The notes under the pieces are model-generated. The model made no database searches and was not told where the DNA came from. It was given only the letters and a program-made list of their open reading frames with translations. From Geopsychrobacteraceae bacterium (GTDB taxonomy: Bacteria > Desulfobacterota > Desulfuromonadia > Desulfuromonadales > Geopsychrobacteraceae), in assembly GCA_963677215.1 (NCBI GenBank), contig OY781919.1, forward strand, positions 2,701,138 to 2,733,137: a stretch of DNA of 32,000 bases. The letters are read 5' to 3'. A program made the position numbers and the translations under genes. Shown in pieces: positions 399 through 18,494 of the stretch. Positions within the stretch are counted from its first letter, which is position 1. Every line of letters starts with the position of its first letter.

Positions 399-1679
399 AT
401 GGGAAAGACATTAGCTGAAAAGATATTTGACAGCCATCTGCGTGATGAGCCGTTTCCAGGGACCAAGGTCTTGAACCTTGACCGGGTACTCTGTCATGAA
501 GTCACTACTCCGGTTGCCATTGCTGATCTGGAATGGCGCAATAAGGATCGTGTCTTCGATCCAAAGAAGATCAAGGTTGTCATCGATCACGTTACTCCGG
601 CCAAGGACAGCAAGACCGCTATCCAGGGAAAAATCGTCCGTGACTGGGCTCGCCGGCACGAGATTCCTGACTTTTTTGATGTTGGTCGCAATGGTGTTTG
701 TCACGCATTGTTTCCAGAAAAAGGGCATATCCGTCCTGGGTTTACTGTCATCATGGGGGATAGTCATACCTGTACTCACGGAGCTTTTGGCGCCTTTGCT
801 GCCGGTGTCGGAACAACTGACCTTGAAGTCGGTATCCTCAAAGGTGTCTGTGCTTTCCGTGAGCCGGAAACCATTCGTGTCAATCTGAACGGTAAGCTGC
901 CGGAAGGCGTCTTTGCCAAAGACGTTATCCTGCACGTCATCTCTTTGCTCGGGGTTAATGGTGCTACCGACAAGGTTATCGAGTTCCGTGGTCCGATCGT
1001 CGAGCAGATGAGCATGGAAGCGAGGATGACCCTGTGCAACATGGCGATTGAAGCTGGCGGGACCTCGGGGGTCTGTATGCCGGACATGGTCACCGTCGAG
1101 TATCTCTGGCCGTTCATCAAGGACGAGTTTGCCAGCAAGGAAGCCGCGCTGGCCGATTATCAGCAGTGGGTCTCTGATGAGGATGCGTCTTACGTCAAGG
1201 TTATGGATATCGATGTGTCGGTTCTTGAGCCTCAGGTCACTTATGATTATAAGCCGGACTGCGTCAAAGACGTCAAGGAACTGGCCGGGACCCCGGTTGA
1301 TCAGATCTATATCGGAACCTGCACCAACGGCCGTATCGAAGACTTGCGTCAGGCCGCTGCTGTTCTCAAGGGCAAGAAGATCGCTGATTCCGTTCGTGCC
1401 ATTGTTTCTCCGGCAACCCCGAAGATCTACAGCGATGCACTGGCTGAAGGGTTGATTCAGATCTTCATGGACGCCGGTTTCTGTGTCACCAACCCGACCT
1501 GTGGCGCTTGTCTGGGGATGAGTAACGGTGTCCTTGCTGAAGGTGAAGTCTGTGCTTCGACCAGTAACCGCAACTTTAACGGTCGTATGGGTAAGGGCGG
1601 CATGGTTCACCTGATGAGTCCTGCAACTGCCGCTGCGACAGCATTGACCGGTGTTATCACCGATGCCAGAACCCTTTAA
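399..1679 (+). CDS. leuC: 3-isopropylmalate dehydratase large subunit (short, type-2/archaeal-like aconitase-family LeuC)
   Basis: AAGGAG RBS lies 6 nt upstream of ATG 399. The 426-aa protein carries Fe-S ligand motifs 'IGTCTNGR' and 'NPTCGACLG' and 'GDSHT'. It is followed by leuD. Confidence 0.93.
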   Translation: MGKTLAEKIFDSHLRDEPFPGTKVLNLDRVLCHEVTTPVAIADLEWRNKDRVFDPKKIKVVIDHVTPAKDSKTAIQGKIVRDWARRHEIPDFFDVGRNGVCHALFPEKGHIRPGFTVIMGDSHTCTHGAFGAFAAGVGTTDLEVGILKGVCAFREPETIRVNLNGKLPEGVFAKDVILHVISLLGVNGATDKVIEFRGPIVEQMSMEARMTLCNMAIEAGGTSGVCMPDMVTVEYLWPFIKDEFASKEAALADYQQWVSDEDASYVKVMDIDVSVLEPQVTYDYKPDCVKDVKELAGTPVDQIYIGTCTNGRIEDLRQAAAVLKGKKIADSVRAIVSPATPKIYSDALAEGLIQIFMDAGFCVTNPTCGACLGMSNGVLAEGEVCASTSNRNFNGRMGKGGMVHLMSPATAAATALTGVITDARTL

Positions 1680-1698
1680 TCGATCAGGAGAGAAAACA

Positions 1699-2229
1699 AT
1701 GCAGAAGACTTTTGGCGGATCGGCAATCTTTCTTGATCGATCCGATATCAACACCGATGAAATCATCCCGGCCAAGTATCTGACCGAGGTTACCAAGGAT
1801 GCTCTGCGTCCTTTTATTCTCGAAGATCTTAAGCTCGACGGGTTTGACCCGAAGGGTGAAATTCTCAAAAATGCATCTGTCGTAGTTACCCGTGAAAACT
1901 TTGGTTGTGGCTCTTCACGTGAGCATGCGCCATGGGTTTTCGAGGTCAATGATGTTCATACCATCATTGCCGAAAGCTACGCGCGGATCTTCCGCCAGAA
2001 TATGTTCAACTGCGGTATGCTCGCTATCGAACTGCCGAAAGAGAACATTGCGGAGCTGGTGGCTTTGCAGCAGCAGGGGCCGGTGAAGATCTCCGTAGAC
2101 CTTGATGCTCAAACTGTAACCGCTGCTTCAGGCGCTAATAGCAAAAGCTACAGATTCGAGATCAGCCCGTTTGATAAGGCCCTGGTCGAGGCTGGCGGCT
2201 GGGTTGAGTTTGCGGATTCCCGCTATTAA
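1699..2229 (+). CDS. leuD: 3-isopropylmalate dehydratase small subunit
   Basis: ATG 1699 follows 'caggagag'; the longer track ORF from 1651 overlaps the leuC end and is unlikely. The 'GCGSSREHAPW' swivel-domain motif is present. 176 aa. Confidence 0.92.
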   Translation: MQKTFGGSAIFLDRSDINTDEIIPAKYLTEVTKDALRPFILEDLKLDGFDPKGEILKNASVVVTRENFGCGSSREHAPWVFEVNDVHTIIAESYARIFRQNMFNCGMLAIELPKENIAELVALQQQGPVKISVDLDAQTVTAASGANSKSYRFEISPFDKALVEAGGWVEFADSRY

Positions 2230-2251
2230 GAAGTCCTGCTGACCGGGCTTG

Positions 2252-2287
2252 ATAGGCAGCCGCATTGCGGCTGCCTATTTTATTTTG
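2252..2287 (+). terminator. Rho-independent terminator after leuD
   Basis: Perfect 12-bp stem: ataggcagccgc (2252-2263) pairs with gcggctgcctat (2267-2278) around a 3-nt loop. It is followed by tttatttt. Confidence 0.85.
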
Positions 2288-2309
2288 CAAAGCGGGTAAT
2301 CGCTTGCAA
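2285..2309. promoter_or_regulatory. Imperfect inverted repeat TTGCAAAGCG-N6-CGCTTGCAA upstream of the leuB promoter (possible regulator site)
   Basis: Arms at 2285-2294 and 2301-2309 are complementary except for one extra A. The centre lies about 27 bp upstream of the -35 hexamer at 2321. Confidence 0.3.
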
Positions 2310-2320
2310 GGCGAAAAAGT

Positions 2321-2349
2321 TTGACAAAAAAAAGACCGCTTTCTATAGT
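2321..2349 (+). promoter_or_regulatory. Sigma70-type promoter for leuB
   Basis: TTGACA (2321-2326), 17-nt spacer, TATAGT (2344-2349). It sits between the leuD terminator and leuB. Confidence 0.6.
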
Positions 2350-2354
2350 TTTAG

Positions 2355-3497
<1,143 letters not shown>

Positions 3498-3513
3498 TAG
3501 GCACCCCTGTATT

Positions 3514-3548
3514 GCGGCAGAACCTGCGGGTTCTGCCGCGATTTATTC
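3514..3548 (+). terminator. Hairpin terminator/attenuator after leuB
   Basis: 11-bp stem: gcggcagaacc (3514-3524) pairs with ggttctgccgc (3529-3539) around loop tgcg. The trailing T tract is interrupted (gatttattc), so termination may be partial. Confidence 0.6.
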
Positions 3549-3560
3549 AGGTGAGACGCA

Positions 3561-4313
3561 ATGACGGAAGGACTCTTTGTTCCGGGGGAGGGGCTCTATT
3601 ATCGACTCGACCCACGGCTTAAGCTGATCATGACTCTGGTCCTGATGATTGCGCTCTTTTCAGCGAACGGTTTCGTTCGTCCCTTACTGATTTTTCTGGC
3701 CTGGCTCGGTTTTTCCACTCTGAATTTCGTCAAGCTCAAGCAGTTATGGAAATTTGTCAGACTGCTGCGCTGGCTACTTCTCTTTACCCTGCTTCTTCAT
3801 TTGCTTCTGACGCCGGGCCGTGCGCTATTGGGCAGCAGCTGGGTAAGTTATGATGGTTTGCTGCGTGGAGTGCTGATCGATCTCCAGCTGGTCTTGGCCG
3901 TAGGTCTGTCCCTCGCTCTGGCCTGGACAACCCACCCTGTGCAGCTGGCCAGAGCCGGTGCCGCTCTGTTGGCGCCACTGCAATCTTTCAAGGTCCCGGT
4001 CCGGGAGATTGCCGATCTGGTTCCGCTGGTGCTCTATTTTATTCCGTCACTGCAACAAGAGGTCGAGCAGCTGAAAAGAGAGCGGGATGGCGAGATGGAT
4101 ATGACTCATTCGCTCTGGGTTCGCTGGCAGACGAGAGTTGAACTTCTGATCGGGCGCATGCTTGACCGCGGCGATCAGTTGGCTCGGCAGATTGCCGATG
4201 GTGACGATTATATGGCAGGAACGCTTCCGCATGAACCGTTCTCATTTGATCGGACCAGCGCATTGGCCGCTATTGTCGCTCTGGTTTTCTGTACTGCTCT
4301 GTTTATGGTGTGA
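3561..4313 (+). CDS. EcfT/CbiQ-family energy-coupling-factor transporter transmembrane component (no ATPase genes adjacent)
   Basis: 'aggtgag' RBS. The 250-aa polytopic membrane protein has the family-typical N-terminus 'YYRLDPRLKLIMTLVLMIALF' and a charged cytoplasmic helix region near the C-terminus. It occupies the ecfT position upstream of truA-rplM-rpsI. Confidence 0.65.
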   Translation: MTEGLFVPGEGLYYRLDPRLKLIMTLVLMIALFSANGFVRPLLIFLAWLGFSTLNFVKLKQLWKFVRLLRWLLLFTLLLHLLLTPGRALLGSSWVSYDGLLRGVLIDLQLVLAVGLSLALAWTTHPVQLARAGAALLAPLQSFKVPVREIADLVPLVLYFIPSLQQEVEQLKRERDGEMDMTHSLWVRWQTRVELLIGRMLDRGDQLARQIADGDDYMAGTLPHEPFSFDRTSALAAIVALVFCTALFMV

Positions 4314-4314
4314 A

Positions 4315-5049
4315 ATGATTAAGGTTAAATTGACAGTCGCTTATGATGGAACCGACTATGTCGGCTGGCAGTATCAGCCTAACGGGATCTCTGTTCAGCA
4401 ATGTCTGGAGCAGGCGCTGGCCAAGCTGACGGGGCAGGTGCATGCCGTTTACTCCTCCGGACGCACCGATGCCGGTGTGCATGCTCTGGGGATGATCTGC
4501 CATTTTCAGACCGAGCGCCAGTTGCCGCTCAAGGCCTGGCGGGAAGGGTTGAACAGTCATCTGCCGCAGGATATTGCTGTACGTGAGGCTGAATTTGTCG
4601 ATCCCGAATTTCATGCCCGGTTCAGCGCCGTTGGCAAACACTATCGCTATACAATCCTGCGTGATACCATCCGTCAGCCGCTGGAACGCCGGACAAGCTG
4701 GCAGGTCAAGGCTGAGCTTGATATGGATCTGATGCGTCAGGCGGCGGCAGCCCTGGTCGGTCGCCATGATTTTGCAGCGTTCAGGACGACGGGCTGTGCA
4801 GCGGAAACGACGATTCGCGAGATCTTTACTGTCGAGATGTCCGAGCAGGGAACCCTGCTGTTCATCGACGTGCACGGCGGCGGGTTTCTGAAAAACATGG
4901 TTCGGATGATTGTCGGTACCCTGGTCGAGGTCGGACGGGGCAAGCGGCATCCTGCCGTTGTTTCTGAGATGCTGCTGAATTCCGCTTCGTGCCTGCCTGC
5001 ACTGACAGCGCCGGCACATGGTCTCTGTCTCATCAGCGTCAGCTATTGA
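4315..5049 (+). CDS. truA: tRNA pseudouridine(38-40) synthase
   Basis: ATG 4315 lies 1 nt after the upstream TGA (4311-4313). 'MIKVKLTVAYDGTDYVGWQYQ' and the catalytic-Asp motif 'GRTDAGVHA' are present. The track ORF start at 4162 is an out-of-context extension overlapping the upstream gene. Confidence 0.93.
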   Translation: MIKVKLTVAYDGTDYVGWQYQPNGISVQQCLEQALAKLTGQVHAVYSSGRTDAGVHALGMICHFQTERQLPLKAWREGLNSHLPQDIAVREAEFVDPEFHARFSAVGKHYRYTILRDTIRQPLERRTSWQVKAELDMDLMRQAAAALVGRHDFAAFRTTGCAAETTIREIFTVEMSEQGTLLFIDVHGGGFLKNMVRMIVGTLVEVGRGKRHPAVVSEMLLNSASCLPALTAPAHGLCLISVSY

Positions 5050-5111
5050 GGCGGTATATAATAGCTATTTACAGGCCTGTCAGGCGGGCTTGATTTTGCT
5101 CAAGAATTTAC

Positions 5112-5140
5112 TTGACAGCTTGGGGGGACTCGGATAGATT
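5112..5140 (+). promoter_or_regulatory. Sigma70-type promoter for rplM-rpsI
   Basis: TTGACA (5112-5117), 17-nt spacer, TAGATT (5135-5140). Confidence 0.55.
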
Positions 5141-5196
5141 TACCGCTTTGTGAGCCCCACAAACCCTTTAGAGAAATAATTTTGGAGAGGAATGCG

Positions 5197-5625
5197 ATGA
5201 GTACACTGGTCGCTAAGGAACAGGACATAAAGAGACAGTGGTACGTTGTCGATCTGGAGGACGTAGTTCTTGGTCGTGCAGCTACCGAGATTGCCCGTGT
5301 TTTGCGCGGAAAGCATAAAGCAATTTTTAGCCCGAGCGTTGACACTGGCGATTTTGTCATTGTTCTTAATGCTGACAAGGTCAAAATGACCGGAAATAAA
5401 CTGGCTGCAAAGAAATATTACAGCTATTCCGGATACAAAGGCGGTCTGAAAGAGATTACTGCAGAGAAGCAGCTGCAGAAAAAACCTGAGATGGTTGTAC
5501 AGGCTGCTGTTAAAGGTATGCTGCCGAAGAACAAACTCGGCCGCCAAATGTTCCGTAAACTCAAGGTCTACGCTGGTGGTGAGCATCCACACACTGCCCA
5601 GCAGCCTAAAGAATTGAAGTTTTAA
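5197..5625 (+). CDS. rplM: 50S ribosomal protein L13
   Basis: GGAGAGG RBS ends 6 nt before ATG 5197. 'KRQWYVVD' and the overall L13 pattern are present. 142 aa. Confidence 0.96.
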
Positions 5626-5641
5626 CCAGGGAGATAGCTAG

Positions 5642-6034
5642 ATGGCTGAGCAGAAGTTTTATGCAACTGGTAAAAGAAAAACATCGATCGCCCGCGTCTG
5701 GATGAAGCCGGGTACCGGTGTAATCACCGTCAACAAGCGTCCTCTGGATGATTTCTTCGGTCGCGAGACCTCCAAGATGGTTGTCCGTCAGCCGCTTGAA
5801 CTGACCGAGAACATGGGTAAGTTCGATATCAGCGTCAACGTCTGTGGCGGTGGTGCCTCCGGTCAGGCCGGTGCTATCAAGCACGGCATCACCAAGGCTC
5901 TGCTTGAGGTCGATCCTGCCCTGCGTGACGTCCTCAAGAAAGCTGGCTTCATTACCCGTGACAGCCGCGTGAAAGAACGTAAAAAATACGGTCGCGCTGC
6001 TGCTCGTCGGAGTTTCCAGTTCTCCAAGCGTTAA
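5642..6034 (+). CDS. rpsI: 30S ribosomal protein S9
   Basis: 130 aa with '[15 protein letters not shown]' and the classic C-terminus '[10 protein letters not shown]'. Confidence 0.97.
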
Positions 6035-6070
6035 TCGATCTATCGTTTACGCAGAGATTGCATTACTGTC

Positions 6071-6103
6071 AAAAGGGAAGCCCTGTGTGGGTTTCCCTTT
6101 TTT
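6071..6103 (+). terminator. Rho-independent terminator after rpsI
   Basis: gggaagccc (6075-6083) pairs with gggtttccc (6089-6097), with one G-U pair. It is flanked by aaaa and tttttt. Confidence 0.8.
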
Positions 6104-6119
6104 CGTTAAGGAGATGGTT

Positions 6120-7157
6120 ATGATCAAGGTCGCTGTTGTTGGTGCCAGTGGTTACACTGGTGTTGAGCTGTTAAGAATTCTTGTCGGTCATCCTGAGGTT
6201 GAGGTTGTCTGTGTTACCTCGCGGCAGCATGAGGGCGTACCTATCAATCAGGTATTCCCCTCCTTGACCGGTTTCTGCAATCTGGCCTGTGAGCCTCTTG
6301 ATGTTGCCAGTATCTCTGAGCGAGTTGACCTTGTGTTTACCGCGCTGCCGCACAAGTCGGCCATGGAGGTGATCCCCGACTTTCTGGCGGCAGGCTGTAA
6401 GGTTGTCGATCTGTCGGCGGATTACCGTCTCAAGGATCAGGCAGTTTATGAAGCTTGGTACCAGCAGCACAGCAGTCCGGAGCTGCTGTCCACGGCTGTT
6501 TACGGTTTGCCGGAGCTTTATCGTGAGCAGGTGAAGACTGCAACACTGGTTGCCAACCCGGGTTGCTATCCGACCAGCATTATTCTCGGTCTGGCGCCGC
6601 TGCTCAAGAACACCCTGATCGACACCACAACCCTGATTGCAGACAGCAAATCCGGAACCAGTGGTGCCGGTCGCAGTGCCAAGCAGGGGAGTCTGTTCTG
6701 TGAGGTGAATGAAGGCTTCAAGGCATATTCCGTTGGCGCTCACCGGCATACCCCTGAGATTGAACAGGAGCTGTCGCTGTTGGCTGGTGTATCGGTCGAG
6801 CTGAATTTTACTCCGCATTTGTTGCCGATCAATCGGGGCATTCTGTCAACCAGCTATGCCAAGCTGACCAGAAAGGCTTCGACGGCCGATCTGCTGGCAC
6901 TCTATCGTGAGTTTTATCAGGGGGAGACCTTTGTCCGCATCATGCCGGGTGAAGAATTACCCAATGTGGCTTATCTGTCCGGAACCAATTTCTGTGACAT
7001 CGGTCTGGTCAGTGATGAACGGACCGGCAGGGTCATTGTCGTTTCAGCCATTGATAATCTGGTCAAGGGGGCGGCCGGTCAGGCGGTGCAGAACATGAAT
7101 GTCCTGTTCGGTCTCAAGGAGTCTCTGGGGCTGGCAATCGTTCCGCCATTCCCCTGA
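6120..7157 (+). CDS. argC: N-acetyl-gamma-glutamyl-phosphate reductase
   Basis: AAGGAG (6108-6113) precedes ATG 6120. '[15 protein letters not shown]' Rossmann motif and catalytic Cys motif 'NPGCYPT'. 345 aa. Confidence 0.94.
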
Positions 7158-7250
7158 TCCTCAGTTTTTGAACATCCTGCTGGCATTTTCGCAGCGCAGT
7201 AGGTAATATTTGTAGTTATTTCATTGGCAAGTTTTTATTGTTGAGGTCAT

Positions 7251-9341
7251 ATGCTGGACTCCGGTCTTCAGGTTCTTGGCTGTCAGGTTGAAGAGCTGAT
7301 CGCTTCAAATTCTGTCTACGATACTTATTCCGTCACGGCAGCAGATGGAACGAGACGTCGTCTGTTGCTTTTTTTCTCTGAAGATCTGAAGGAAAAGTCG
7401 CGCAGGCAGTCATCAGCCGTACTGGTGACGCGGCTTGCAGGACAGGATTTCAGCCAGGTTGTCCTTCCTCTTGAAGCCGGCGAGGTCGGCGAACATTTTG
7501 TCTGTCTCTGGCCGGAGCTGAGCGGTTCTGCATTGTCTGATCTGGAGGACTTGCCGCTGGCAGTGAATCAGGCTCTCGCGTTGGTTCGTCAGATTGCCGC
7601 GGCACTGATTGTCCCGCATGCCGCCAATTTTATTCATGGCGCACTCTCTTCACAGAATGTTCGTCTGCAAGGCGAAGATGTTCTGCTCTTCGATTTCGGC
7701 CTGGGTAAGATTTCCCCCCTCGACTTCAATTCAGGGATTGATCCCCAATGGATCAGCCCGGAGCAGGTGCGAGGCGAGGCGTATGGGCCGCCGGCTGATG
7801 TCTATGCCTTGGGTTGTCTCCTCTATTTTCTGTTGACGGGCACGCCACCGTTCAAGGAGAACGAGCCATTTTACATCGCCGTCCAGCGCTTGCATGAGGC
7901 TTTTCCACAACTGCCGGCCTCACTGCATCAGTGTCAGCCTCTGCTCGCAAAGCTGGTAGCTCCGCTACCCGAACGGCGCCCGGTTGCGGCGGAGATTGTC
8001 GCTGAAATCGATCAGCTGCTCGAGTCCATGACTGTTGCTGCGCAGGATGTTGAGTCTGCCGATGAGATTGAGGGCGAGTCAGAACCAGATAACGTTGCTG
8101 AGGTCGATGAAAATCTGAGTGCAGATATTGCCGCCAAGATTGAGGCTCGACTTAAGGCTCTGGAAGAAGAGACTGTACCTCTTCCGGGGCAGGTCAGTAC
8201 CGCTTTTGCTCAGCCTGACTCTGCCGATGACAGTCTGGCCTGCCGGGAGAGCAGGAGGCGAACTTCAGGCTGGAGACCCGTATTGCTGCTTCTGCTTGGA
8301 GTTGTCATCGGTGTCGTCGTCTATGCCCTGTACAGCGAACAACCGAGCGGACCTGCAGGTTCTGCCGCTGGTGGTACTGAGGATCCTCTTCTCTCTGAAC
8401 TGCAGAATGCCATCGGGCTGTGGCAGAATCAGGAGCAGCAGGCTGCCATTGTTCAGTTGCTCGGTCTGATCCAGGATTATCCTGAAGATCCTCGTGCCTA
8501 TAACGATCTTGCGGCAATTCGAGTTGCTCAGGGAAATTACGAAGAGGCTCGTACTTTGCTGGAACAGGCTTTGAATACCAGCCGTGATTATGCGACGGTC
8601 TACAATAATCTGGCTGCCGTCTATAGTGAGATGGCCAGGGCCTCCTATGGCAGAGCCCTGCAGTTGACCGATGAAAAACGGAACTTTGCTCTTGTGCTTA
8701 TCCCGCAGGTGCAAGGTCCTTCTGTCGCCACGGCAGCTTACCCGCAGGATGAGGCCGATGCCGGTTCCGCAACGGACTCTGCTTCTGTCAATGGGCCTCA
8801 GACTGTTGCTGTTGCTGCAGTTGAGAAGGCTGCTCCATTGCAATCTCAGGACAATCAACCAGAACAGCTCGCTGCCTCCGTAGAGCAGCCTGCCGATGTT
8901 CCGATGATGGCTTCTGAACCGGAACCGGAGCTGGAGTTGGAGTCTCAACAGGAGCCCTCCAGTGCTTTCGGACAGGAACAGCCGTCAGCCGTAATGACTG
9001 CAGCTGAGGCCTTTCTTGCCTCCTGGGCCGAAGCCTGGTCGCGGCAGGATGTTGAGTCCTATCTCGCTCATTACGCAGACGATTTTATACCGCGTAGCGG
9101 GGTGACAAGAGAACGTTGGGAACTGCAGCGCCGCAGTCGCCTGGCGAACCCCTCGGCCATTCAGGTCTCGCTGAAAAATTACGCCCTTGTCAAACAGGCA
9201 GAGGACCTGCTGACGATTGACGTCGAGCAGGTCTATGTCAGTGACGTCTATTCCGATCTGACGCGTAAGCGTTTTGAGTTGCGCAAGTTGTCTGGTGGAT
9301 TCGAGATCGTCCGTGAACATTCTCTTGAGGTGATTCGTTGA
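7251..9341 (+). CDS. Membrane-spanning protein: N-terminal Hanks-type kinase fold with degenerate catalytic residues (predicted pseudokinase), 1 TM helix, TPR-like repeats, acidic linker, C-terminal ~110-aa domain shared with the downstream gene
   Basis: GAGG RBS before ATG 7251. 'FIHGALSSQNVRL' sits where HRDLKPxN is expected. 'FDFGLGK' (DFG), 'ISPEQVRG' (APE-like) and 'DVYALGCLLYFLLTGTPPF' are present. TM helix 'WRPVLLLLLGVVIGVVVYALY' spans aa 342-361. A TPR-like segment reads 'AYNDLAAIRVAQGNYEEARTLLEQALNTSRDYATVYNNLAAVY'. Confidence 0.8.
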   Translation: MLDSGLQVLGCQVEELIASNSVYDTYSVTAADGTRRRLLLFFSEDLKEKSRRQSSAVLVTRLAGQDFSQVVLPLEAGEVGEHFVCLWPELSGSALSDLEDLPLAVNQALALVRQIAAALIVPHAANFIHGALSSQNVRLQGEDVLLFDFGLGKISPLDFNSGIDPQWISPEQVRGEAYGPPADVYALGCLLYFLLTGTPPFKENEPFYIAVQRLHEAFPQLPASLHQCQPLLAKLVAPLPERRPVAAEIVAEIDQLLESMTVAAQDVESADEIEGESEPDNVAEVDENLSADIAAKIEARLKALEEETVPLPGQVSTAFAQPDSADDSLACRESRRRTSGWRPVLLLLLGVVIGVVVYALYSEQPSGPAGSAAGGTEDPLLSELQNAIGLWQNQEQQAAIVQLLGLIQDYPEDPRAYNDLAAIRVAQGNYEEARTLLEQALNTSRDYATVYNNLAAVYSEMARASYGRALQLTDEKRNFALVLIPQVQGPSVATAAYPQDEADAGSATDSASVNGPQTVAVAAVEKAAPLQSQDNQPEQLAASVEQPADVPMMASEPEPELELESQQEPSSAFGQEQPSAVMTAAEAFLASWAEAWSRQDVESYLAHYADDFIPRSGVTRERWELQRRSRLANPSAIQVSLKNYALVKQAEDLLTIDVEQVYVSDVYSDLTRKRFELRKLSGGFEIVREHSLEVIR

Positions 9342-10684
9342 AAGCCAGACTACCCCTCATTGTCATTATTCTGATTGCACTGTTCGGCTTGACCGGAGCC
9401 AAGGTCGTTGCGCTCTGGCCACAGCAGGACCACGTTCTTCTGGAGCATGGTTTACCCCGCACCGATGCCCCGGATTTTTCTCCCTTGGAAGAGGATGCCT
9501 CTCGTCAAAATGCACTGATGGCTCGTCTTGATGGGCGTCTCAAGGAGAATCCTGAAGATTATGAGGCCAGCCTGCTTCGCGGTCTGCTGCTGTTTCAGCG
9601 TGGCGAGCTTGAGTCGGCGATTGCCGAACTGCGCAGCCTGGTTACGCGGGCTCCTAAATTTCAGCTGGCCCATCTGGTGCTTGGTGATCTGCTCAGTGCT
9701 CGCTTTGACCAGGTTGACTCTTTGGGGATCCGGGCTCTGGCCGGCGAGCTTGACGGTCAGCAGGAACAGCGCATTGAGCAGTTGCAGAACGAAGCGCGGG
9801 CGAGAATTCAGGGCTACCTGGCATTGGTCGAGGGGGTCGAGGTGCCGAAGGCTTTGACCAGCCTGAGCTCATCCGTTGCCTATGCGCTGATTGTCGACAA
9901 GAGCAAAAATCGGCTCTATGTCTACCGCAATGCAGGCCCCGGCCTGCCGCCTGAACTGGTTGACGATTTCTACATCGTGTTAGGTAAAAAACCGGGGAAC
10001 AAGCAGCAGGAGGGGGACCTGAAAACCCCCGATGGCGTCTATCATGTCACCTCCTATCTGCCGGATGCAAAGTTGCCGCCTCTCTACGGCAGCGGTGCTT
10101 TTCCGACCAATTATCCCAATGCCTTTGATCGTCGCCAGAATAAGAGTGGCAGTGGTATCTGGCTGCATGGAACTGAAAAGTCGCTCTATAGCAGACCGCC
10201 ACTCGACAGTGAGGGGTGTGTTGTTCTGACCAACGAGGAGTTCTTGCGCATCATCCCCTACGTTCAGGTTGGCAAAACCCCGGTAATCATCTCGGAGAAG
10301 GTTGTCTGGATCTCCAGTAGTGAATGGTTGCGACAGAATATTGAAATTCAGGCGGTTCTGGAAGCCTGGCGTCAGAGTTGGGAAGAGGCCGATACTGATG
10401 TCTATCTGGATAAATATGCCAGGGACTTCTGGTCCGGTCGTTACGATCGTGAAAGCTGGTCGCACTATAAAAAGCAGGTTTTTTCAGGCAAGACCTATCA
10501 GAAGATCGCTCTGAATGATGTTTCCATTCTGAGTTATCCGGCCAGCGAGCTCTATCCCGAGATGAAACTGGTCAGTTTTGTTCAGAATTACCAGTCGAAC
10601 AATTTCAGCGGGACAGTTGCCAAGCAGCTTTATCTGGTCAAACGGGGCTCAGACTGGAAAATTCTTTATGAGGGGAATCCCTGA
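9338..10684 (+). CDS. Periplasmic/anchored YkuD-domain protein (L,D-transpeptidase / YafK-like) with N-terminal TPR-like region and C-terminal ~110-aa accessory domain
   Basis: TTG start at 9338 overlaps the upstream TGA by 4 nt (TTGA), and a GAGGTGA RBS lies at 9327-9333. Signal-anchor 'MKARLPLIVIILIALFGLTGA'. YkuD motifs 'LIVDKSKNRLYVY', 'GDLKTPDGVY', 'IWLHGT' (His277) and 'SEGCVVL' (Cys294). Confidence 0.85.
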   Translation: MKARLPLIVIILIALFGLTGAKVVALWPQQDHVLLEHGLPRTDAPDFSPLEEDASRQNALMARLDGRLKENPEDYEASLLRGLLLFQRGELESAIAELRSLVTRAPKFQLAHLVLGDLLSARFDQVDSLGIRALAGELDGQQEQRIEQLQNEARARIQGYLALVEGVEVPKALTSLSSSVAYALIVDKSKNRLYVYRNAGPGLPPELVDDFYIVLGKKPGNKQQEGDLKTPDGVYHVTSYLPDAKLPPLYGSGAFPTNYPNAFDRRQNKSGSGIWLHGTEKSLYSRPPLDSEGCVVLTNEEFLRIIPYVQVGKTPVIISEKVVWISSSEWLRQNIEIQAVLEAWRQSWEEADTDVYLDKYARDFWSGRYDRESWSHYKKQVFSGKTYQKIALNDVSILSYPASELYPEMKLVSFVQNYQSNNFSGTVAKQLYLVKRGSDWKILYEGNP

Positions 10685-10691
10685 TCCCGGA

Positions 10692-10892
10692 TCATGCCTG
10701 GGTTTCAAGATCCTGAATCAGTTGCTTAAGGTCCCAGCCATGGTATTCAGCGACAACCTCAAGTTTTTCGAAGAGCATTTCGCAGCAGACGCAGCTCCCT
10801 GATTTTTTGTCGTAGGTCTGAAAAACCTCGAGGGTTTCAGGCCAGTCACTGAGAATGTCGAGCAGGGTCATCTGGGCAGTAATCTCGGGCAT
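10692..10892 (-). CDS. Small DUF1858-like protein (hybrid-cluster-protein-associated redox-disulfide-type domain)
   Basis: AGGAGG RBS lies 6 nt upstream of the ATG on the minus strand. The 66-aa protein reads 'MTLLDILSDWPETLEVF...SGSCVCC...LEVVAEYHGWDLKQLIQDL', which follows the DUF1858 pattern as I remember it. Confidence 0.6.
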   Translation of the reverse strand: MPEITAQMTLLDILSDWPETLEVFQTYDKKSGSCVCCEMLFEKLEVVAEYHGWDLKQLIQDLETQA

Positions 10893-11044: not shown

Positions 11045-12079
11045 ATGCTTTTGGACGAATTCGATTATGACCTGCCGGAAGAACTGATTGCCCAGTTTCC
11101 TGCAGAGCAACGAGATGCTTCACGACTCATGTGCCTGCAGCGTGATACCGGTTTCGTCTCTTGCAGACAGTTTACAGACATTCCCGATTATTTTAAAGAG
11201 GGGGATGTCCTGGTTTTGAATAATACCAGGGTCATTCCGGCGCGCCTGTTGGGCAGCAAGGCAACCGGCGGCAAGGTCGAGATCCTGTTGGTGCGCCAGG
11301 CCGGAGGGGAGTGCACAAGTGACTGGCTGTGTTTGACAAAATCATCGAAGGCTCTGAAACCGGGAACCAGGATTGTGTTTTCGGAAAATTTTGCGGCGCA
11401 GATCCTTGGTGAGGGAGAACCTCCCTACCGCCTGGTTCGTTTTGAATGCAGCGGAGACCTGTTTTCTGAGTTGGAGAGGATTGGCCACCTGCCTCTTCCG
11501 CCCTATATCAAGAGGGACGACAATCTGCAGGATCAGAACCGTTATCAGACGGTTTTTGCCCGGGAGAAGGGTGCTGTTGCTGCTCCGACGGCCGGGTTGC
11601 ATTTTACCGACGCCATTCTTGACCAGATTCGACGGCGCGGTGTCCAGATCTGCTCCCTGACCCTGCATGTCGGACTCGGGACCTTTCTGCCGGTAAGGGT
11701 TGAAAATGTGGCTGAACACAAGATGCACGCGGAGTATTATTCGATCCCGACTGAAACAGCGGATGCGGTCAATATGGCACATCGTAACGGCGGGCGTGTT
11801 TTTGCCCTGGGAACAACCAGTGCCAGGGCGATGGAAACGGCTGCAACGGAAGACCGACAGCTGCATGCCGGTTCCGGTGACAGTGAAATCTTTATCTATC
11901 CCGGCTATGAATTCAAGGTTGTCGATGCTCTGGTGACAAATTTCCATCTGCCGAAATCGACCCTGCTGATGCTGGTCTCGGCCCTGGCTGGAAAAGACAA
12001 TATCATGGCAGCTTATCGTCGCGCTGTTGAAGAGCGGTACCGTTTTTTCAGTTATGGCGATTGCATGCTGATTATATAA
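11045..12079 (+). CDS. queA: S-adenosylmethionine:tRNA ribosyltransferase-isomerase
   Basis: 'FDYDLPEELIAQFP...RDASRLM' N-terminus. 344 aa. Followed by tgt, as in the E. coli queA-tgt-yajC-secDF operon. Confidence 0.94.
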   Translation: MLLDEFDYDLPEELIAQFPAEQRDASRLMCLQRDTGFVSCRQFTDIPDYFKEGDVLVLNNTRVIPARLLGSKATGGKVEILLVRQAGGECTSDWLCLTKSSKALKPGTRIVFSENFAAQILGEGEPPYRLVRFECSGDLFSELERIGHLPLPPYIKRDDNLQDQNRYQTVFAREKGAVAAPTAGLHFTDAILDQIRRRGVQICSLTLHVGLGTFLPVRVENVAEHKMHAEYYSIPTETADAVNMAHRNGGRVFALGTTSARAMETAATEDRQLHAGSGDSEIFIYPGYEFKVVDALVTNFHLPKSTLLMLVSALAGKDNIMAAYRRAVEERYRFFSYGDCMLII

Positions 12080-12092
12080 AAGATGGAAGTGA

Positions 12093-13214
<1,122 letters not shown>

Positions 13215-13224
13215 GATTAATACT

Positions 13225-13246
13225 GTTACGGCACTGATGCCGTGAC
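13225..13246 (+). other. Intercistronic hairpin between tgt and yajC (no U tract)
   Basis: gttacggca (13225-13233) pairs with tgccgtgac (13238-13246): 9 bp with one G-U pair, loop ctga. Confidence 0.4.
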
Positions 13247-13266
13247 CCCTAATGAAGGAGGATGTA

Positions 13267-13575
13267 ATGGCGACAGAAGCGTTTGCAATGGCGGGAGCCG
13301 CTGCTCAGGGAGGAAACCCCTATCAACCGATTATCATGCTGGTGGCGATGTTTGCCATTTTTTATTTCCTGCTTATCAGACCCCAGCAAAAGCGGGCCAA
13401 GCAGCAGCGTGAGATGATGAACAGCCTGCAACCGGGAGAGAGTGTCGTGACCGCCGGTGGCCTGCACGGCAAGATTACCGCTGTTGAAGAGGGGATTGTC
13501 AGTGTCGAAATCGCCAACGGTGTTGTGATCAAGGTCAATCGTGCCTCGATTTCCGAAGTCAAGAGATCCGCATAA
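13267..13575 (+). CDS. yajC: Preprotein translocase subunit YajC
   Basis: GAAGGAGGA RBS precedes ATG 13267; the track start at 13252 lies inside the RBS. 'FYFLLIRPQQKRAKQQREM' and 'GGLHGKI' are present. 102 aa. Confidence 0.9.
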   Translation: MATEAFAMAGAAAQGGNPYQPIIMLVAMFAIFYFLLIRPQQKRAKQQREMMNSLQPGESVVTAGGLHGKITAVEEGIVSVEIANGVVIKVNRASISEVKRSA

Positions 13576-13620
13576 TCGATACCACTCATATATCTCATCG
13601 ATACATTCAGGGAGATCTAG

Positions 13621-15216
13621 ATGTCTAACAGTCTGAAACTCAGGAGTATACTGGTTGTTCTCTGTATTCTTCTGGCCATTTTTGCCATAGCGCCTACTGT
13701 CATGCGCGGCAGCCTGCCGCAATGGTGGACCGATACCGTCGGGCCGATCCAACTGGGTCTCGATCTTCAGGGGGGGATGCACCTGGTTCTTGGCGTTGAT
13801 GCCGACAAAGCTGTTGAGAGCCGGATCGACACGGTCATTGACCAGCTCGAAAACGATCTGCGTGAAAAGGATATCATCTTCAAGCGGATCGAACGTCAGG
13901 GGGACCGTCTTGCCGTTATCGTCTATGACGATCAGGAAGGTGCCAAGATTGATGCCCTGATGGCCGATCAGTTTCCTAGTCTGGAAGGGGAAACCCTGAC
14001 CGGTACTGGTGGATATGTTGAAAAACACTATCGTCTGAGCGACAACGAGATCGAAAATATCAAGGACTATGCCGTTCGCCAGGCGCTTGAAACCATGCGC
14101 AACCGGGTCGATCAGTTCGGCGTCAGTGAGCCGACTCTGCAGCGTCAAAGCGGTAACCGCATCCTGATCCAGCTTCCTGGTGTCGAGGATCCTGAGCGTG
14201 CCATCGCACTGCTCGGCAAGACTGCGCGCCTTGAATTCAAGATGGTCGATGAGACCGCCAATCTGCAGGACGCCGTTGCCGGCAATCTCAAACCGGGAAC
14301 CCAGCTGCTCTATGAGCGTAATGTCAACAAGGCGACCGGCGGAGTCACCGAGACCCCTCTGGTAGTTTTTGACAAGACCGCACTGACCGGTGATCTGCTT
14401 GCCGATGCCAATGTGCGTATCGATACCCGCTTCAACGAGCCCTATGTCGCTATCGATTTCAATGCCGTTGGAGCCAAGCGCTTCGATCAGATTACTGCCG
14501 CAAATGTCGGTAAGCGGATGGCCATTGTCCTGGACGACACCGTCTACTCGGCACCAGTTATTCGTGAGCGGATCTCCGGCGGCAGTGCTCAGATTTCAGG
14601 TTCCTTTACCTCGCAGGAAGCGACCGACCTGGCGATTGTCCTGCGTGCCGGTTCTTTGCCTGCGCCGGTCAAGATTCTTGAAAACCGCACCGTCGGACCG
14701 TCCCTTGGACAGGATTCGATCGACCGCGGCATCAAGTCGATCTGGGTCGGAGGTCTCCTGGTCATTCTGGCTATTCTCGTCTATTATCAGCTGTCCGGCG
14801 TCGTTGCCGTTGTCGCCCTGGTTCTCAATATCGTCTTTATTACGGCGCTTCTGTCTCTCTTTGGTGCGACCCTGACCCTTCCGGGTCTGGCCGGTATCGT
14901 TCTGACCGTCGGTATGGCTGTTGATGCCAACGTACTGATCTTTGAGCGGGTTCGTGAAGAATTGCGCCTTGGTCGGGCACCGAAGCTGGCCCTTGATTCA
15001 GGTTACAGCAAAGCGTTCTTGACCATTATCGATGCCAATATAACCACCCTGATCGCCGCTCTGGTTCTTTTTCAGTTCGGAACCGGCCCGGTCCGCGGTT
15101 TTGCCGTCACTCTGTCGATCGGTATTATTGCGTCGCTGTTTACCGCTATCTTTGTCTCTCGTGTAATTTTTGATCTGTTCTTGACTGGCCGCGACATCAA
15201 GCGGCTGAGTATATAA
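13621..15216 (+). CDS. secD: Protein translocase subunit SecD
   Basis: 531 aa with 'LGLDLQGGMHLVL', 'VGPSLG' and C-terminal RND-like TM helices. Confidence 0.95.
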   Translation: MSNSLKLRSILVVLCILLAIFAIAPTVMRGSLPQWWTDTVGPIQLGLDLQGGMHLVLGVDADKAVESRIDTVIDQLENDLREKDIIFKRIERQGDRLAVIVYDDQEGAKIDALMADQFPSLEGETLTGTGGYVEKHYRLSDNEIENIKDYAVRQALETMRNRVDQFGVSEPTLQRQSGNRILIQLPGVEDPERAIALLGKTARLEFKMVDETANLQDAVAGNLKPGTQLLYERNVNKATGGVTETPLVVFDKTALTGDLLADANVRIDTRFNEPYVAIDFNAVGAKRFDQITAANVGKRMAIVLDDTVYSAPVIRERISGGSAQISGSFTSQEATDLAIVLRAGSLPAPVKILENRTVGPSLGQDSIDRGIKSIWVGGLLVILAILVYYQLSGVVAVVALVLNIVFITALLSLFGATLTLPGLAGIVLTVGMAVDANVLIFERVREELRLGRAPKLALDSGYSKAFLTIIDANITTLIAALVLFQFGTGPVRGFAVTLSIGIIASLFTAIFVSRVIFDLFLTGRDIKRLSI

Positions 15217-15231
15217 GGAGGCTGAGCGGAA

Positions 15232-16146
15232 ATGCAGCTGATCAAACCAGATGTCAATTTCGATTTTGTTGGCAAGCGTAAAGCCGCCATCATACTTTCC
15301 GTGGTCCTGATTCTGATCGGGATCGTCTCTCTCATTGTCAAGGGCGGTCCAGATTACGGTGTCGATTTCGCCGGCGGTACCCTGATCCAGGTCAAGTTTG
15401 AGCAGGCGACAGCGCCGGCTGAAATCAAGCAGGCGATTGCCGATCTCAACCTCGGCAGTCCGGTGGTCCAGACCTTTGGCGAGAGCCAGAGCGAATACCT
15501 GATTCGTGTTGAACAGACCACCGCCGAGCTTGAAGGCCTGGCTCAGAAGGTTCAGGCTGACCTGGAAAAAACCTTTGGAACCGGCAAGGTCGATATCCGC
15601 CGGGTCGAAATGGTCGGTCCGCAGGTCGGTAAGGATCTCCGCAGCAAGGGGTTGCAGGCGATCCTCTATGCCATGATCGGGATCCTGATCTACATCTCCT
15701 GGCGTTTTGAATTCCGATTCGCCATCGGAGCGATTGTCGCCCTGGTGCATGACGTGCTGATCACCCTCGGCATGTTCAGTGTCTTTGGCAAGGAGATCGA
15801 TCTGCCGATCATCGCGGCGTTCCTGGCGATTATCGGCTACTCGCTGAACGATACCATCATTGTCTATGACCGGATTCGCGAGAATATGGCCAAGCACAAC
15901 AAGGAGAGCTTCTCGTTCATCGTCAACCGCAGTGTCAACGAGACCCTGTCCCGAACCTTGCTGACCTCCGGTACGACCTTGCTGGTTGTCCTGGCCCTGT
16001 TTATACTTGGGGGTGGGGTCATTCACAACTTTGCTTTTGCGATGCTGGTCGGGGTCATCGTCGGTACCTACTCCTCGATCTTTGTTGCCAGCCCGCTCCT
16101 GATCTTCTGGCAGCAGAAAAAAGCGAAGAAGGTCACTGCGTCCTGA
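15232..16146 (+). CDS. secF: Protein translocase subunit SecF
   Basis: AAGGAGG RBS. 304 aa with 'YGVDFAGGT' and a six-TM pattern. Confidence 0.95.
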   Translation: MQLIKPDVNFDFVGKRKAAIILSVVLILIGIVSLIVKGGPDYGVDFAGGTLIQVKFEQATAPAEIKQAIADLNLGSPVVQTFGESQSEYLIRVEQTTAELEGLAQKVQADLEKTFGTGKVDIRRVEMVGPQVGKDLRSKGLQAILYAMIGILIYISWRFEFRFAIGAIVALVHDVLITLGMFSVFGKEIDLPIIAAFLAIIGYSLNDTIIVYDRIRENMAKHNKESFSFIVNRSVNETLSRTLLTSGTTLLVVLALFILGGGVIHNFAFAMLVGVIVGTYSSIFVASPLLIFWQQKKAKKVTAS

Positions 16147-16159
16147 TAAGGGAGCTGTC

Positions 16160-16735
16160 ATGAAAAAAGAAACGGTTCTGCTGGTTGTCGTCGTCCTGAT
16201 CGCCGGAATTCTGATCGGTGTGATCGTTTCGAACATGCATAAAGATAAAGGGCGGCCGTCGCCGGCTCCGGGTAGTACGCCGGCGGCGATTGTCGATCAT
16301 CAGCAACGGATCACTACGCTTGAAGAGATCGTTGCCAAGGAACCGAAGAACCGCAATGCCTGGGTTCAGCTTGGTCACAACTTCTTCGATTCCGACCAGC
16401 CGATGAAGGCGATCGATGCCTATGACAAGGCCCTGGCGCTTGACGGCAGGGACCCGGATGTCCTGACCGATCAGGGGATCATGTTTCGCCGGGTCGGCTG
16501 GTATGATCGGGCGATCGCCAACTTCATCAAGGCTAATGAGGTCAGCCCCGGCCATCAGCAAAGTCTGTACAATCTGGGGATCGTCTACAGATATGATCTC
16601 AAGGATTTTGCCAAAGCGGCACAGGCCTGGGAGCGCCTGCTTGAGCTCGACCCGAACGGCCCCAATGCATCACAGCTTAAGGCCGAAGTTGAATTCCTCA
16701 AGACTCATGCGCAACTGGCCCAACCCCAACAATGA
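16160..16735 (+). CDS. Single-pass membrane-anchored TPR-repeat protein, last gene of the secDF operon
   Basis: AAGGGAG RBS, 13 nt after the secF stop. TM helix 'TVLLVVVVLIAGILIGVIVS', then TPR-like repeats ('AWVQLGHNFFDSDQPMKAIDAYDKALALD', 'SLYNLGIVYRYDLKDFAKAAQAWERLLELDP'). 191 aa. Confidence 0.8.
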   Translation: MKKETVLLVVVVLIAGILIGVIVSNMHKDKGRPSPAPGSTPAAIVDHQQRITTLEEIVAKEPKNRNAWVQLGHNFFDSDQPMKAIDAYDKALALDGRDPDVLTDQGIMFRRVGWYDRAIANFIKANEVSPGHQQSLYNLGIVYRYDLKDFAKAAQAWERLLELDPNGPNASQLKAEVEFLKTHAQLAQPQQ

Positions 16736-16738
16736 GAT

Positions 16739-16768
16739 GAAGCCGGGCTTTGCCCCGGCTTTTTTTCT
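16739..16768 (+). terminator. Rho-independent terminator after the TPR gene
   Basis: gaagccggg (16739-16747) pairs with cccggcttt (16754-16762) around loop ctttgc, followed by a T run to about 16767. Confidence 0.8.
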
Positions 16769-16779
16769 TGGATGAAAAG

Positions 16780-18489: not shown

Positions 18490-18494
18490 TTGGT

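Follow-up and report, generated by a model that had tools for sequence, protein, structure and literature searches.

A transmembrane pseudokinase fused to the coupled partner of a predicted Csd6/Pgp2/Bd1075-family L,D-carboxypeptidase

Few enzymes have been shown to give cells a curved or helical shape, and L,D-carboxypeptidases of the Csd6/Pgp2/Bd1075 type are among them. Here we analyze a pair of overlapping genes, A and B, in a 32,000-nucleotide (nt) stretch of DNA from a Geopsychrobacteraceae bacterium (assembly GCA_963677215.1, contig OY781919.1, positions 2,701,138 to 2,733,137 of the forward strand; this whole stretch is called the window). Gene B encodes what appears, from its sequence and predicted structure, to be a new member of this enzyme family. 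Gene A encodes a bitopic membrane protein with a cytoplasmic pseudokinase and, at its periplasmic end, a domain paralogous to the C-terminal domain of B. The reading that we favor, with a probability of roughly 0.55, is that the two genes form a translationally coupled operon for the local editing of peptidoglycan stem peptides, in which A serves as a non-catalytic targeting or regulatory scaffold for B.

The closest described enzymes are Csd6 from Helicobacter pylori (4XZZ) and Pgp2 from Campylobacter jejuni (6XJ6), which give their hosts helical shape, and Bd1075 from Bdellovibrio bacteriovorus (7O21), which gives vibrioid curvature. All three were shown experimentally to be L,D-carboxypeptidases that convert tetrapeptide to tripeptide stems and so set cell shape, and the combination of a YkuD catalytic domain with an NTF2-like domain is so far known from carboxypeptidases only (PMC4599014, PMC8038945, PMC8938487). 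The pocket of the Pgp2 NTF2 domain binds peptidoglycan and needs residues Y233, F242, K257, K307, and E324; mutants are no longer helical (PMC8038945). In Bd1075, the NTF2 domain and its residue Y274 target the enzyme to the convex cell face, and the mechanism of lateral-side targeting is stated to be not known (PMC8938487). These results provide an experimental precedent for an idea put forward in a reading of the window made from the sequence alone (the sequence-only reading), namely that the two C-terminal domains of A and B recognize the same ligand.

B shares the two-domain core of these enzymes and differs from them in its surroundings. Bd1075, its closest solved relative (32% identity, YkuD followed by NTF2), lacks the 170-residue N-terminal TPR-like region of B and is not reported to have a partner protein (PMC8938487); the gene for B overlaps that of its partner. 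Pgp2 and Csd6 dimerize through short N-terminal helices (PMC4599014) where B has its TPR-like region, and neither a paralogous NTF2-only partner nor a kinase-like protein has been described for them.

Other systems resemble the pair in their logic. In H. pylori, the peptidase Csd1 works with an inactive homolog, Csd2 (stabilized by the transmembrane protein Csd7), and Csd5, another transmembrane protein, attaches to peptidoglycan through an SH3 domain and to CcmA and MurF on the cytoplasmic side (PMC9507126). Like A and B, these complexes pair a hydrolase with a non-enzymatic homolog and use a bitopic protein that binds peptidoglycan outside and a partner inside, two roles that A merges. The likeness is a functional analogy only: there is no sequence kinship, Csd1 and Csd2 are M23 peptidases, and Csd5 has an SH3 domain and no kinase-like domain. 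The PASTA kinases (PknB, Stk1, PrkC) are the closest kinase structures to A and are also bitopic with an extracytoplasmic wall-binding module; in contrast, A is catalytically dead, has a TPR and NTF2 ectodomain in place of PASTA repeats, and belongs to a diderm host. Finally, the mycobacterial MviN (MurJ) reportedly has a C-terminal cytoplasmic Hanks-type pseudokinase that acts as a docking platform and recruits FhaA; there, the pseudokinase is part of a lipid II flippase instead of being joined to a TPR-NTF2 ectodomain, and it is not known to be paired with an L,D-carboxypeptidase. To our knowledge, bacterial pseudokinases with a known role are rare.

Gene B and the coupled junction

In the raw sequence, genes A and B overlap by 4 nt (TTGA), and the Shine-Dalgarno sequence of B, embedded in the last codons of A, lies 4 nt upstream of its TTG start. 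The homologs of B are conserved from residue 1 of the family consensus, which supports this TTG start. The two genes, their junction, and the domains of B are laid out as follows (aa, amino acids; ORF, open reading frame; AF2, AlphaFold2; pLDDT, the per-residue confidence of the AF2 models).

7243 to 7246, plus strand: ribosome-binding site GAGG of gene A, 4 nt before its ATG, by direct reading of the sequence
7251 to 9341, plus strand: gene A in the ORF list, 696 aa, a bitopic membrane protein (pseudokinase, transmembrane helix, TPR, linker, NTF2)
9327 to 9341, plus strand: coupling junction, with the Shine-Dalgarno sequence GAGGTGA at 9327-9333, TTG at 9338-9340, and TGA at 9339-9341
9338 to 10684, plus strand: gene B in the ORF list, 448 aa, TTG start, by homology a periplasmic L,D-carboxypeptidase of the Csd6/Pgp2/Bd1075 family
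9338 to 9403, plus strand: aa 1-22 of B, hydrophobic signal peptide or signal anchor MKARLPLIVIILIALFGLTGAK, conserved in the family consensus; AF2 helix at 5-19
9482 to 9829, plus strand: aa 49-164 of B, N-terminal helical, TPR-like region; Pfam TPR_16 and TPR_14 below cut-off, AF2 helices with pLDDT 60-84, many invariant columns
9854 to 10297, plus strand: aa 173-320 of B, YkuD-fold catalytic domain; Pfam YkuD 2.2e-18 (aa 182-318), His277 at 10166-10168 with Gly278 next to it, Cys294 at 10217-10219
10316 to 10675, plus strand: aa 327-446 of B, B-type NTF2-like (Cds6_C) domain; PF24125 2.9e-27 (aa 337-445)

The placement of both ORFs, the TTG start, and the 4-nt overlap given in the sequence-only reading match the ORF list and the raw sequence exactly, and the domain boundaries that it drew in A and B fall within a few residues of the Pfam and AF2 limits. 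Its claim that the pair is coupled is borne out by the overlap, by the embedded GAGGTGA, and by the conservation of the pair across loci described below.

Translation confirms the sequence His277-Gly278-x15-Cys294 in B, which fits the YkuD motif H-(S/G/D)-x14-19-C (PMC4599014). The three residues are invariant in 75 B homologs and align to the H141-A142-C156 triad of Bd1075; the competent YkuD active site proposed for B is thus present. B and Bd1075 also have in common the tyrosine at the base of the NTF2 pocket (Y274 in Bd1075, Y418 in B). In a phmmer search of the PDB, aa 170-445 of B matched 7O21 (Bd1075) at an E-value of 1.5e-46, Pgp2 at 8e-28, and Csd6 at 1e-26, compared with 2e-4 for DpaA/YafK (8IKR). 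The AF2 model of B, built from a 75-sequence alignment (predicted TM-score, pTM, of 0.71), ranks these structures in the same way. Over 285-342 columns, Foldseek gave TM-scores of 0.86-0.88 to 7O21, 0.78 to 6XJ6, and 0.72 to 4XZZ; the TM-score to 8IKR was 0.5. The model superposes on 7O21 with a root-mean-square deviation of 2.6-3.1 Å, with the YkuD and NTF2 domains superposing together.

The earlier reading had called B 'L,D-transpeptidase/YafK-like', a label that does not hold: the NCBIfam model LdtF_DpaA_YafK (NF040599) gives B 31.1 bits against a cut-off of 365, and the best matches are all carboxypeptidases. Assignment of B to the YafK/DpaA proteins or to the L,D-transpeptidases was rejected on this score and on the structural ranking. 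Given the sequence matches, the model superposition, the NCBIfam score, and the active-site motif, we place B as a new member of the Csd6/Pgp2/Bd1075 family, in which its YkuD+NTF2 architecture has already been described. By analogy with the three characterized enzymes, B would be expected to remove D-Ala from tetrapeptides and to have a deep active-site pocket with a single entry.

Gene A: a pseudokinase joined to a paralogous NTF2 domain

The first half of A is cytoplasmic and the second half periplasmic, with a single transmembrane helix between them:

7251 to 8045, plus strand: aa 1-265 of A, cytoplasmic Hanks-type pseudokinase domain; Pfam Pkinase 66.7 bits, pLDDT about 90 or higher, Foldseek TM-score 0.79
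8112 to 8168, plus strand: aa 288-306, conserved cytoplasmic juxtamembrane helix with the motif S.IAA[KR]IE.RL (family alignment and AF2 helix)
8274 to 8336, plus strand: aa 342-362, single transmembrane helix, translation RPVLLLLLGVVIGVVVYALYS; AF2 helix with pLDDT 80-84
8385 to 8657, plus strand: aa 379-469, periplasmic TPR module of five helices (Pfam TPR_11, TPR_19, and TPR_14; AF2)
8703 to 8981, plus strand: aa 485-577, acidic Pro/Glu/Gln-rich disordered linker; pLDDT below 35, no secondary structure, consensus unalignable in the family
8988 to 9332, plus strand: aa 580-694, A-type NTF2-like (Cds6_C) domain; PF24125 4.1e-13 (aa 587-689), pLDDT above 90

A has at least 59 full-length homologs, and its AF2 model was built from 59. 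The kinase-like domain is a protein-kinase fold by the Pfam criterion, its score comparing with a cut-off of 31.7 bits; the Pfam match spans aa 101-251, and in the AF2 model the entire fold occupies aa 1-265. According to Foldseek, the closest structures are Staphylococcus aureus PknB/Stk1 (TM-score 0.79-0.80), followed by PknB, PknA, and PknI of Mycobacterium tuberculosis.

The residues needed for catalysis are gone. The catalytic loop FIHGALSSQN of A aligns to IIHRDLKPEN and IIHRDVKPAN, so that HRD has become HGA and the combination of catalytic Asp with loop Lys and Asn is lost. The motif at this position is HG[ANSGH] in all A homologs, including the most divergent ones, from Pelovirga and from a Geobacteraceae metagenome-assembled genome (MAG). 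Likewise, IASNSVYDT in A aligns to LGFGGMSEV in PknB; the Gly-rich loop GxGxxG is absent, and the aligned family members have no glycine there at all. Independently of the PknB reference sequence, the HRD-to-HGA substitution is also seen in a HMMER alignment of A to a CaMKII structure. The αC Glu is replaced by Gln, and a Lys or Arg lies two alignment positions away from the Lys of VAIK. DFG is kept in the A protein of the window; relatives have DFS, DFA, EFS, or QFA instead. Conservation is strong in the C-lobe (SPEQVRGE, D.YSLGC, PPF).

These family-wide alignments confirm that the domain is a pseudokinase by its sequence motifs, as the sequence-only reading had claimed, and they rule out an active kinase; some residual nucleotide binding may persist. 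We also rejected A as a PASTA receptor kinase: the NCBIfam model PknB_PASTA_kin scores 93.4 bits against a cut-off of 450 and covers the kinase and transmembrane region only, and the ectodomain consists of TPR and Cds6_C.

Between the pseudokinase and the membrane lies the juxtamembrane helix, in which A295, I297, E298, R300, and L301 are nearly invariant in the family alignment. It is amphipathic and has disordered segments on either side, making it a candidate binding or membrane-associated motif. AF2 predicts disorder at aa 268-290 and 308-339 in the cytoplasm and, in the periplasm, at aa 363-377 and throughout the 93-residue linker. When the full-length model was compared with known structures, the top Foldseek match was the CaMKII holoenzyme (5U6Y), which also has a kinase, a linker, and an NTF2-like hub. 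The two domains of A lie on opposite faces of the membrane, and the likeness in layout is probably convergence.

The C-terminal domains of A and B are homologous. They match directly by BLASTP (E-value 2e-7, 24% identity over 110 aa), and both exceed the gathering cut-off of PF24125 (27 bits), at 50.0 bits for A and 95.6 bits for B. Alignment of the two family profiles with hhalign gave a probability of 98.4% and an E-value of 4.6e-15 over 104 columns; a control alignment of kinase against YkuD gave nothing. Both models combine three helices with a curved sheet of four strands; pLDDT, taken by 10-residue block, is about 82-95 and mostly above 85. The paralogy seen by eye in the sequence-only reading therefore stands, as does its count of about 10 identities in the first 25 positions, which a recount reproduced; its guess of an NTF2/SnoaL-like fold agrees with the Pfam assignment of both proteins to Cds6_C, an NTF2-like family. 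The whole periplasmic half of A might be a B paralog that lost its YkuD domain; homology is demonstrable for the NTF2 domain alone, the TPR match is weak, and the linker cannot be aligned.

To compare the pockets, we built an alignment of NTF2 domains, 81 of the A-type and 87 of the B-type, together with the references Pgp2 and Bd1075, whose sequences came from the PDB-search alignments. The equivalents of Pgp2 W221, W225, Y237, and K307 are 100% conserved in both types. Those of Y233 and of Y296 (Bd1075 Y274) are 100% conserved in A-type domains and 95% and 98% conserved, respectively, in B-type domains, which otherwise have Phe. The F242 position is 90-100% conserved, as F or Y in the A-type and as F in 100% of the B-type, and the C-terminal Glu is kept in the A-type. 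The B protein of the window keeps the equivalents of Y233, Y237, F242, K257, Y296, and K307; of the residues known to matter in Pgp2, Y233, F242, K257, and K307 are conserved in B and either conserved or conservatively changed in A.

The two types nevertheless differ systematically in charge. At the K257 position, every A-type domain has Arg and every B-type domain has Lys (100% of each); at the I260 position, 97% of A-type domains have Arg and 88% of B-type domains have Val; and at the A254 position, 79% of A-type domains have Glu. These diagnostic substitutions separate the two types in all taxa, and in the A protein of the window they lie around aa ~624-630 (W623, R627, R630). The A-type pocket thus appears intact but re-charged, compatible with the binding of peptidoglycan in a different state from that bound by B.

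In a neighbor-joining tree of 170 NTF2 domains, the A-type domains separate without exception from the B-type domains together with Pgp2 and Bd1075 (the A clade counts 81/0/0), and the identity between A and B domains from the same locus, 25.1%, equals the overall A-B mean. The clean A-type clade and this equality indicate one ancient duplication kept as a pair, and exclude recent duplication or gene conversion between the two domains.

The domain itself is widespread. A phmmer search with the NTF2 domain of A against 1.84 billion representative proteins returned 4305 matches at E-values up to 1e-3. Many of the matched proteins have 2-5 tandem copies, and the combinations include TPR (4-5 copies), BamE, a T2SS-C domain, and an N-terminal AAA_22 ATPase. 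The AAA_22-Cds6_C layout resembles that of ExeA, which has a peptidoglycan-binding ectodomain. The AAA_22, BamE, and T2SS-C combinations support the view of Cds6_C as a general periplasmic wall-binding module that, in other architectures, stands in for known modules of the wall or envelope, and they show that the layout of cytoplasmic NTPase-like domain, transmembrane helix, and Cds6_C arose more than once. Cds6_C envelope proteins are a large, undescribed repertoire built on one NTF2 module.

Conservation and spread of the pair

To survey relatives of the pair, we used the B-family alignment as a query against one genome per GTDB species and analyzed the best 80 of more than 595 relatives. 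These loci, together with six fetched by exact protein look-up and the window itself, were searched with domain-wise A and B hidden Markov models (HMMs) over all six-frame ORFs. An A-type TPR-NTF2 gene lies immediately upstream of B, on the same strand, in all 76 loci with enough upstream sequence, and its NTF2 domain always scores far better with the A-type than with the B-type profile. The partner is found in Desulfuromonadales, Gammaproteobacteria, and Betaproteobacteria. At the 82 junctions, the two genes overlap by 4 nt in 31 and by 1 nt in 24, are separated by 0 to 7 nt in 25, and overlap by 8 and 14 nt in the remaining two. Of the neighborhood conservation asked for in the sequence-only reading, adjacency of the pair is therefore upheld across three classes, while the exact 4-nt overlap is restricted to those 31 loci.

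In contrast, the kinase domain is found in only 12 loci, all from Desulfuromonadales: the window, Desulfuromusa, Malonomonas (the nearest named relatives of the window's lineage are Desulfuromusa and Malonomonas), Pelovirga, and related MAGs. A cytoplasmic domain is missing from the partner in 64 of the 76 informative loci. A Desulfuromonadales MAG (L010) is the one case of a partner anchored by a transmembrane helix but lacking the kinase domain in that order. In all Gammaproteobacteria (Thiohalomonadaceae, Thioalkalispiraceae, Chromatiales) and all Betaproteobacteria (Zoogloea, Azonexus, Azovibrio, Azospira, Dechloromonas, Gallionella, Nitrosovibrio, and others), the partner is a protein of 330-400 aa with a classical cleavable signal peptide. 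These short partners are recognized by the HMM of the transmembrane-TPR region of A at E-values of 1e-22 to 1e-32, and the TPR module is kept in all A-type partners, the kinase-less ones included. On this sequence evidence, the pair long predates the kinase domain and is much more widely distributed, and the pseudokinase is a late, lineage-specific addition. Because kinase-less partners occur in three classes and lack any anchor in Beta- and Gammaproteobacteria, the core function of the pair should be periplasmic.

The flanking genes differ between lineages. The pair lies between rplM-rpsI-argC and DUF1858, queA-tgt in the Desulfuromusa clade, between a radical-SAM gene and acpH in L010, and between cysS and ppiA-ppiB-lpxH in Azovibrio; in Thiohalomonas, lipA lies downstream, and the upstream flank is without assigned identity. 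We considered a conserved third gene and dismissed it, as the cyclophilin genes and lpxH that follow the pair in Betaproteobacteria belong to an ordinary housekeeping gene order, cysS-ppiB-lpxH. Extra N-terminal domains that seemed to extend the short partner in L036, L037, and L055 were also discarded; they are high-GC stop-to-stop read-through, and the true starts lie just before the signal peptides.

Kinase-less partners form a family of at least 8000 sequence clusters at E-values below 1e-10, annotated merely as 'tetratricopeptide repeat protein', 'DUF4440 domain-containing', or 'L,D-transpeptidase Cds6 family protein'. Literature searches on PF24125, on bacterial pseudokinases with peptidoglycan, and on recent Csd6/Bd1075 work found no description of the pair or of the architecture of A, in line with the earlier statement that no characterized system has this architecture. 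The operon of enzyme and paralogous partner is thus a widespread, undescribed variant of a known shape-enzyme logic, and the pseudokinase-transmembrane-TPR-NTF2 protein is a lineage-specific elaboration with no characterized counterpart. A large branch of the Csd6/Pgp2/Bd1075 family, spanning Rhodocyclales, Gallionella, Nitrosomonadaceae, Thiohalomonadaceae, and Desulfuromonadales, has an uncharacterized, translationally coupled partner at every informative locus surveyed. The partner carries a paralogous domain predicted to bind the wall, and one lineage fused it to a transmembrane pseudokinase, a natural 'Rosetta stone' suggesting that the partner can couple to the cytoplasm. A conserved pseudokinase on such an ectodomain in a diderm is also of independent interest.

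Two loci depart from the simple arrangement. In Malonomonas rubra (L002), B is followed directly by a gene for a 259-aa protein (9494-10273) with an Lcl_C and an A-type Cds6_C domain (A_NTF2 HMM 2e-30; Pfam 1e-16), giving three consecutive genes with a Cds6_C domain. In a Thiohalomonas denitrificans MAG (L021, 5081-6324), the partner is split into two overlapping ORFs, with its TPR and NTF2 parts in different frames, reflecting either a frameshift pseudogene or an assembly error. This was the only split flagged by an automated check of the 76 loci; the domain table suggests similar splits in L040 and L078.

Models for the pair, and the surrounding genes

In the scaffold model introduced at the outset, B would act in the periplasm, its YkuD domain removing the terminal D-Ala of tetrapeptide stems and its NTF2 domain binding the wall and setting the site of action. 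The core of A, comprising the TPR module, the paralogous NTF2 domain with its B-like peptidoglycan-binding pocket, and the flexible linker between them, would grip the sacculus through that pocket and recruit, position, or gate B on the same region of wall, either through the TPR surface or through a shared neighborhood of glycan strands. The long disordered linker would let membrane-anchored A reach the wall. In the lineage of Desulfuromusa, Malonomonas, and Pelovirga, to which the window belongs, the partner would be an inner-membrane protein with a dead Hanks-type kinase in the cytoplasm, and this pseudokinase might serve as a docking scaffold linking the site or level of wall trimming to the cytoskeleton, to precursor synthesis, or to a phospho-signaling protein. 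The pair thereby offers candidates for how wall trimming is localized or regulated. What the sequences and models show is the identity of the domains, the pseudokinase motifs, the conserved pockets, and the conserved, coupled arrangement of the genes; the chemistry of B, its cooperation with A, the scaffold role, and any influence on curvature are inferred.

Within this model, A is most likely a tether or scaffold and not a conformational transmembrane sensor, because predicted disordered segments flank the transmembrane helix and precede the NTF2 domain, and because most lineages lack the kinase. The link of the pair to cell curvature is only suggestive. Among its carriers, Azovibrio, Nitrosovibrio, Gallionella, and Azospira are curved or bean-shaped, but rod-shaped carriers also occur. 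For Desulfuromusa, curved rods have been called diagnostic (PMC4961709).

Several points weigh against the scaffold model. Carboxypeptidase and transpeptidase chemistry cannot be told apart from sequence, since the geometry of the active-site loops decides between them (PMC4599014). Nothing in the window can be identified as a cytoplasmic partner for the pseudokinase. The survey covers the closest B matches and leaves out distant B relatives, including Bd1075, Csd6, and Pgp2, and within Desulfuromonadales alone, adjacency could be plain synteny, so that the comparison across classes carries the argument. The systematic differences between the two pockets mean that the ligand of A may differ from that of B, and the similarity of the TPR regions of A and B (hhalign E-value 1.5e-4 over 35 columns) is merely generic.

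The alternative that survives best, though we think it unlikely, is that A is a transmembrane sensor of peptidoglycan state: its NTF2 domain would detect the muropeptides that are substrate or product of B, and clustering or dimerization would be relayed to the pseudokinase for allosteric control of an effector, much as in a PASTA kinase. A does have the topology of a receptor kinase, and its nearest structural relatives are receptor kinases of the PknB/Stk1 type. Its intact pocket, in which R, R, and E replace Pgp2 K257, I260, and A254, could recognize a stem-peptide state other than that recognized by B, and the conserved C-lobe and juxtamembrane helix suggest a conserved cytoplasmic partner. 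However, sensing across the membrane cannot be what the pair did ancestrally or does at its core, since most partners lack a cytoplasmic part and those of Beta- and Gammaproteobacteria are secreted soluble proteins. The long disordered segments of A make a rigid-body relay improbable, leaving clustering-based signaling as the conceivable route, and the annotated neighbors of the pair include no identified kinase, phosphatase, or FHA gene. The peptidoglycan-state sensing module proposed in the sequence-only reading thus fails as a core function and is retained as a possibility for the pseudokinase lineage, through ligand-driven clustering.

Somewhat more doubtful is the idea that the two proteins are independent neighbors, A being a stand-alone wall-binding tether (here from inner membrane to peptidoglycan) and B working alone, with the tandem duplication kept only by co-regulation. 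A evolves much faster than B (about 35% versus about 60% identity within the clade), many unrelated envelope proteins contain Cds6_C but have no YkuD partner, and Bd1075 is monomeric, with its own NTF2 domain sufficing for targeting (PMC8938487). Against this, all 76 loci, in three classes and four flanking contexts, keep the pair, and the two genes overlap or lie no more than 7 nt apart; despite the age of the duplication, neither copy has relocated. Moreover, translational coupling usually accompanies stoichiometric co-production.

The least probable alternative is that B is not a carboxypeptidase but an L,D-transpeptidase (forming 3-3 cross-links or attaching protein) or a lipoprotein-detaching amidase of the DpaA/YafK type, with A as its specificity factor; the YkuD fold and its motif are indeed common to all these activities (PMC4599014), and public annotation calls the family 'murein L,D-transpeptidase YafK', but the low LdtF_DpaA_YafK score, the distance from DpaA in both sequence and structure, and the restriction of YkuD+NTF2 to known carboxypeptidases all count against it.

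Returning to the scaffold model, a bolder version, which we consider improbable in its entirety, makes the pair a 'writer plus reader' module. B would trim tetrapeptides, and the re-charged A-type NTF2 domain would read the product of B or another feature of the wall, feeding back on the site where B acts; in Desulfuromusa-type bacteria, the reader would be wired through the membrane to a pseudokinase platform, linking wall geometry to the cytoplasmic machinery that sets the curved rod. If true, such a pair would be a diderm, kinase-dead counterpart of PASTA-kinase signaling.

Around the pair, the 93-nt spacer between argC and A is AT-rich and yielded no terminator and no sigma-70 promoter call. 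The single terminator-like site near the pair sits inside B and is below shuffle expectation, and no Rfam match to an RNA element was found anywhere in the window. Convergent with B, on the minus strand at 10692-10892, lies a 66-aa ORF with a weak DUF1858 match (4.6e-6, under the Pfam cut-off). Related genomes have a minus-strand ORF of 66-89 aa at the same position, in some with a weak DUF1858 match, and this convergent ORF marks the 3' end of the A-B unit.

The regions at 399-7157 and 11045-19472 show housekeeping synteny. Pfam confirms a TPR protein (16160-16735), recJ (16750-18489), and murB (18486-19472); leuC, leuD, leuB, cbiQ, truA, rplM, rpsI, and argC upstream and queA, tgt, yajC, secD, and secF downstream were assigned from the gene order of a related locus (L003). 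murB is the sole other cell-wall gene nearby, and nothing ties it to the pair. Three ORFs run antisense within A and B on the minus strand, at 8265-8948 (227 aa), 8985-9320 (111 aa), and 9980-10465 (161 aa). They gave no match to the A and B domain HMMs, the one check made on them, and are most likely shadow ORFs of the coding strand.

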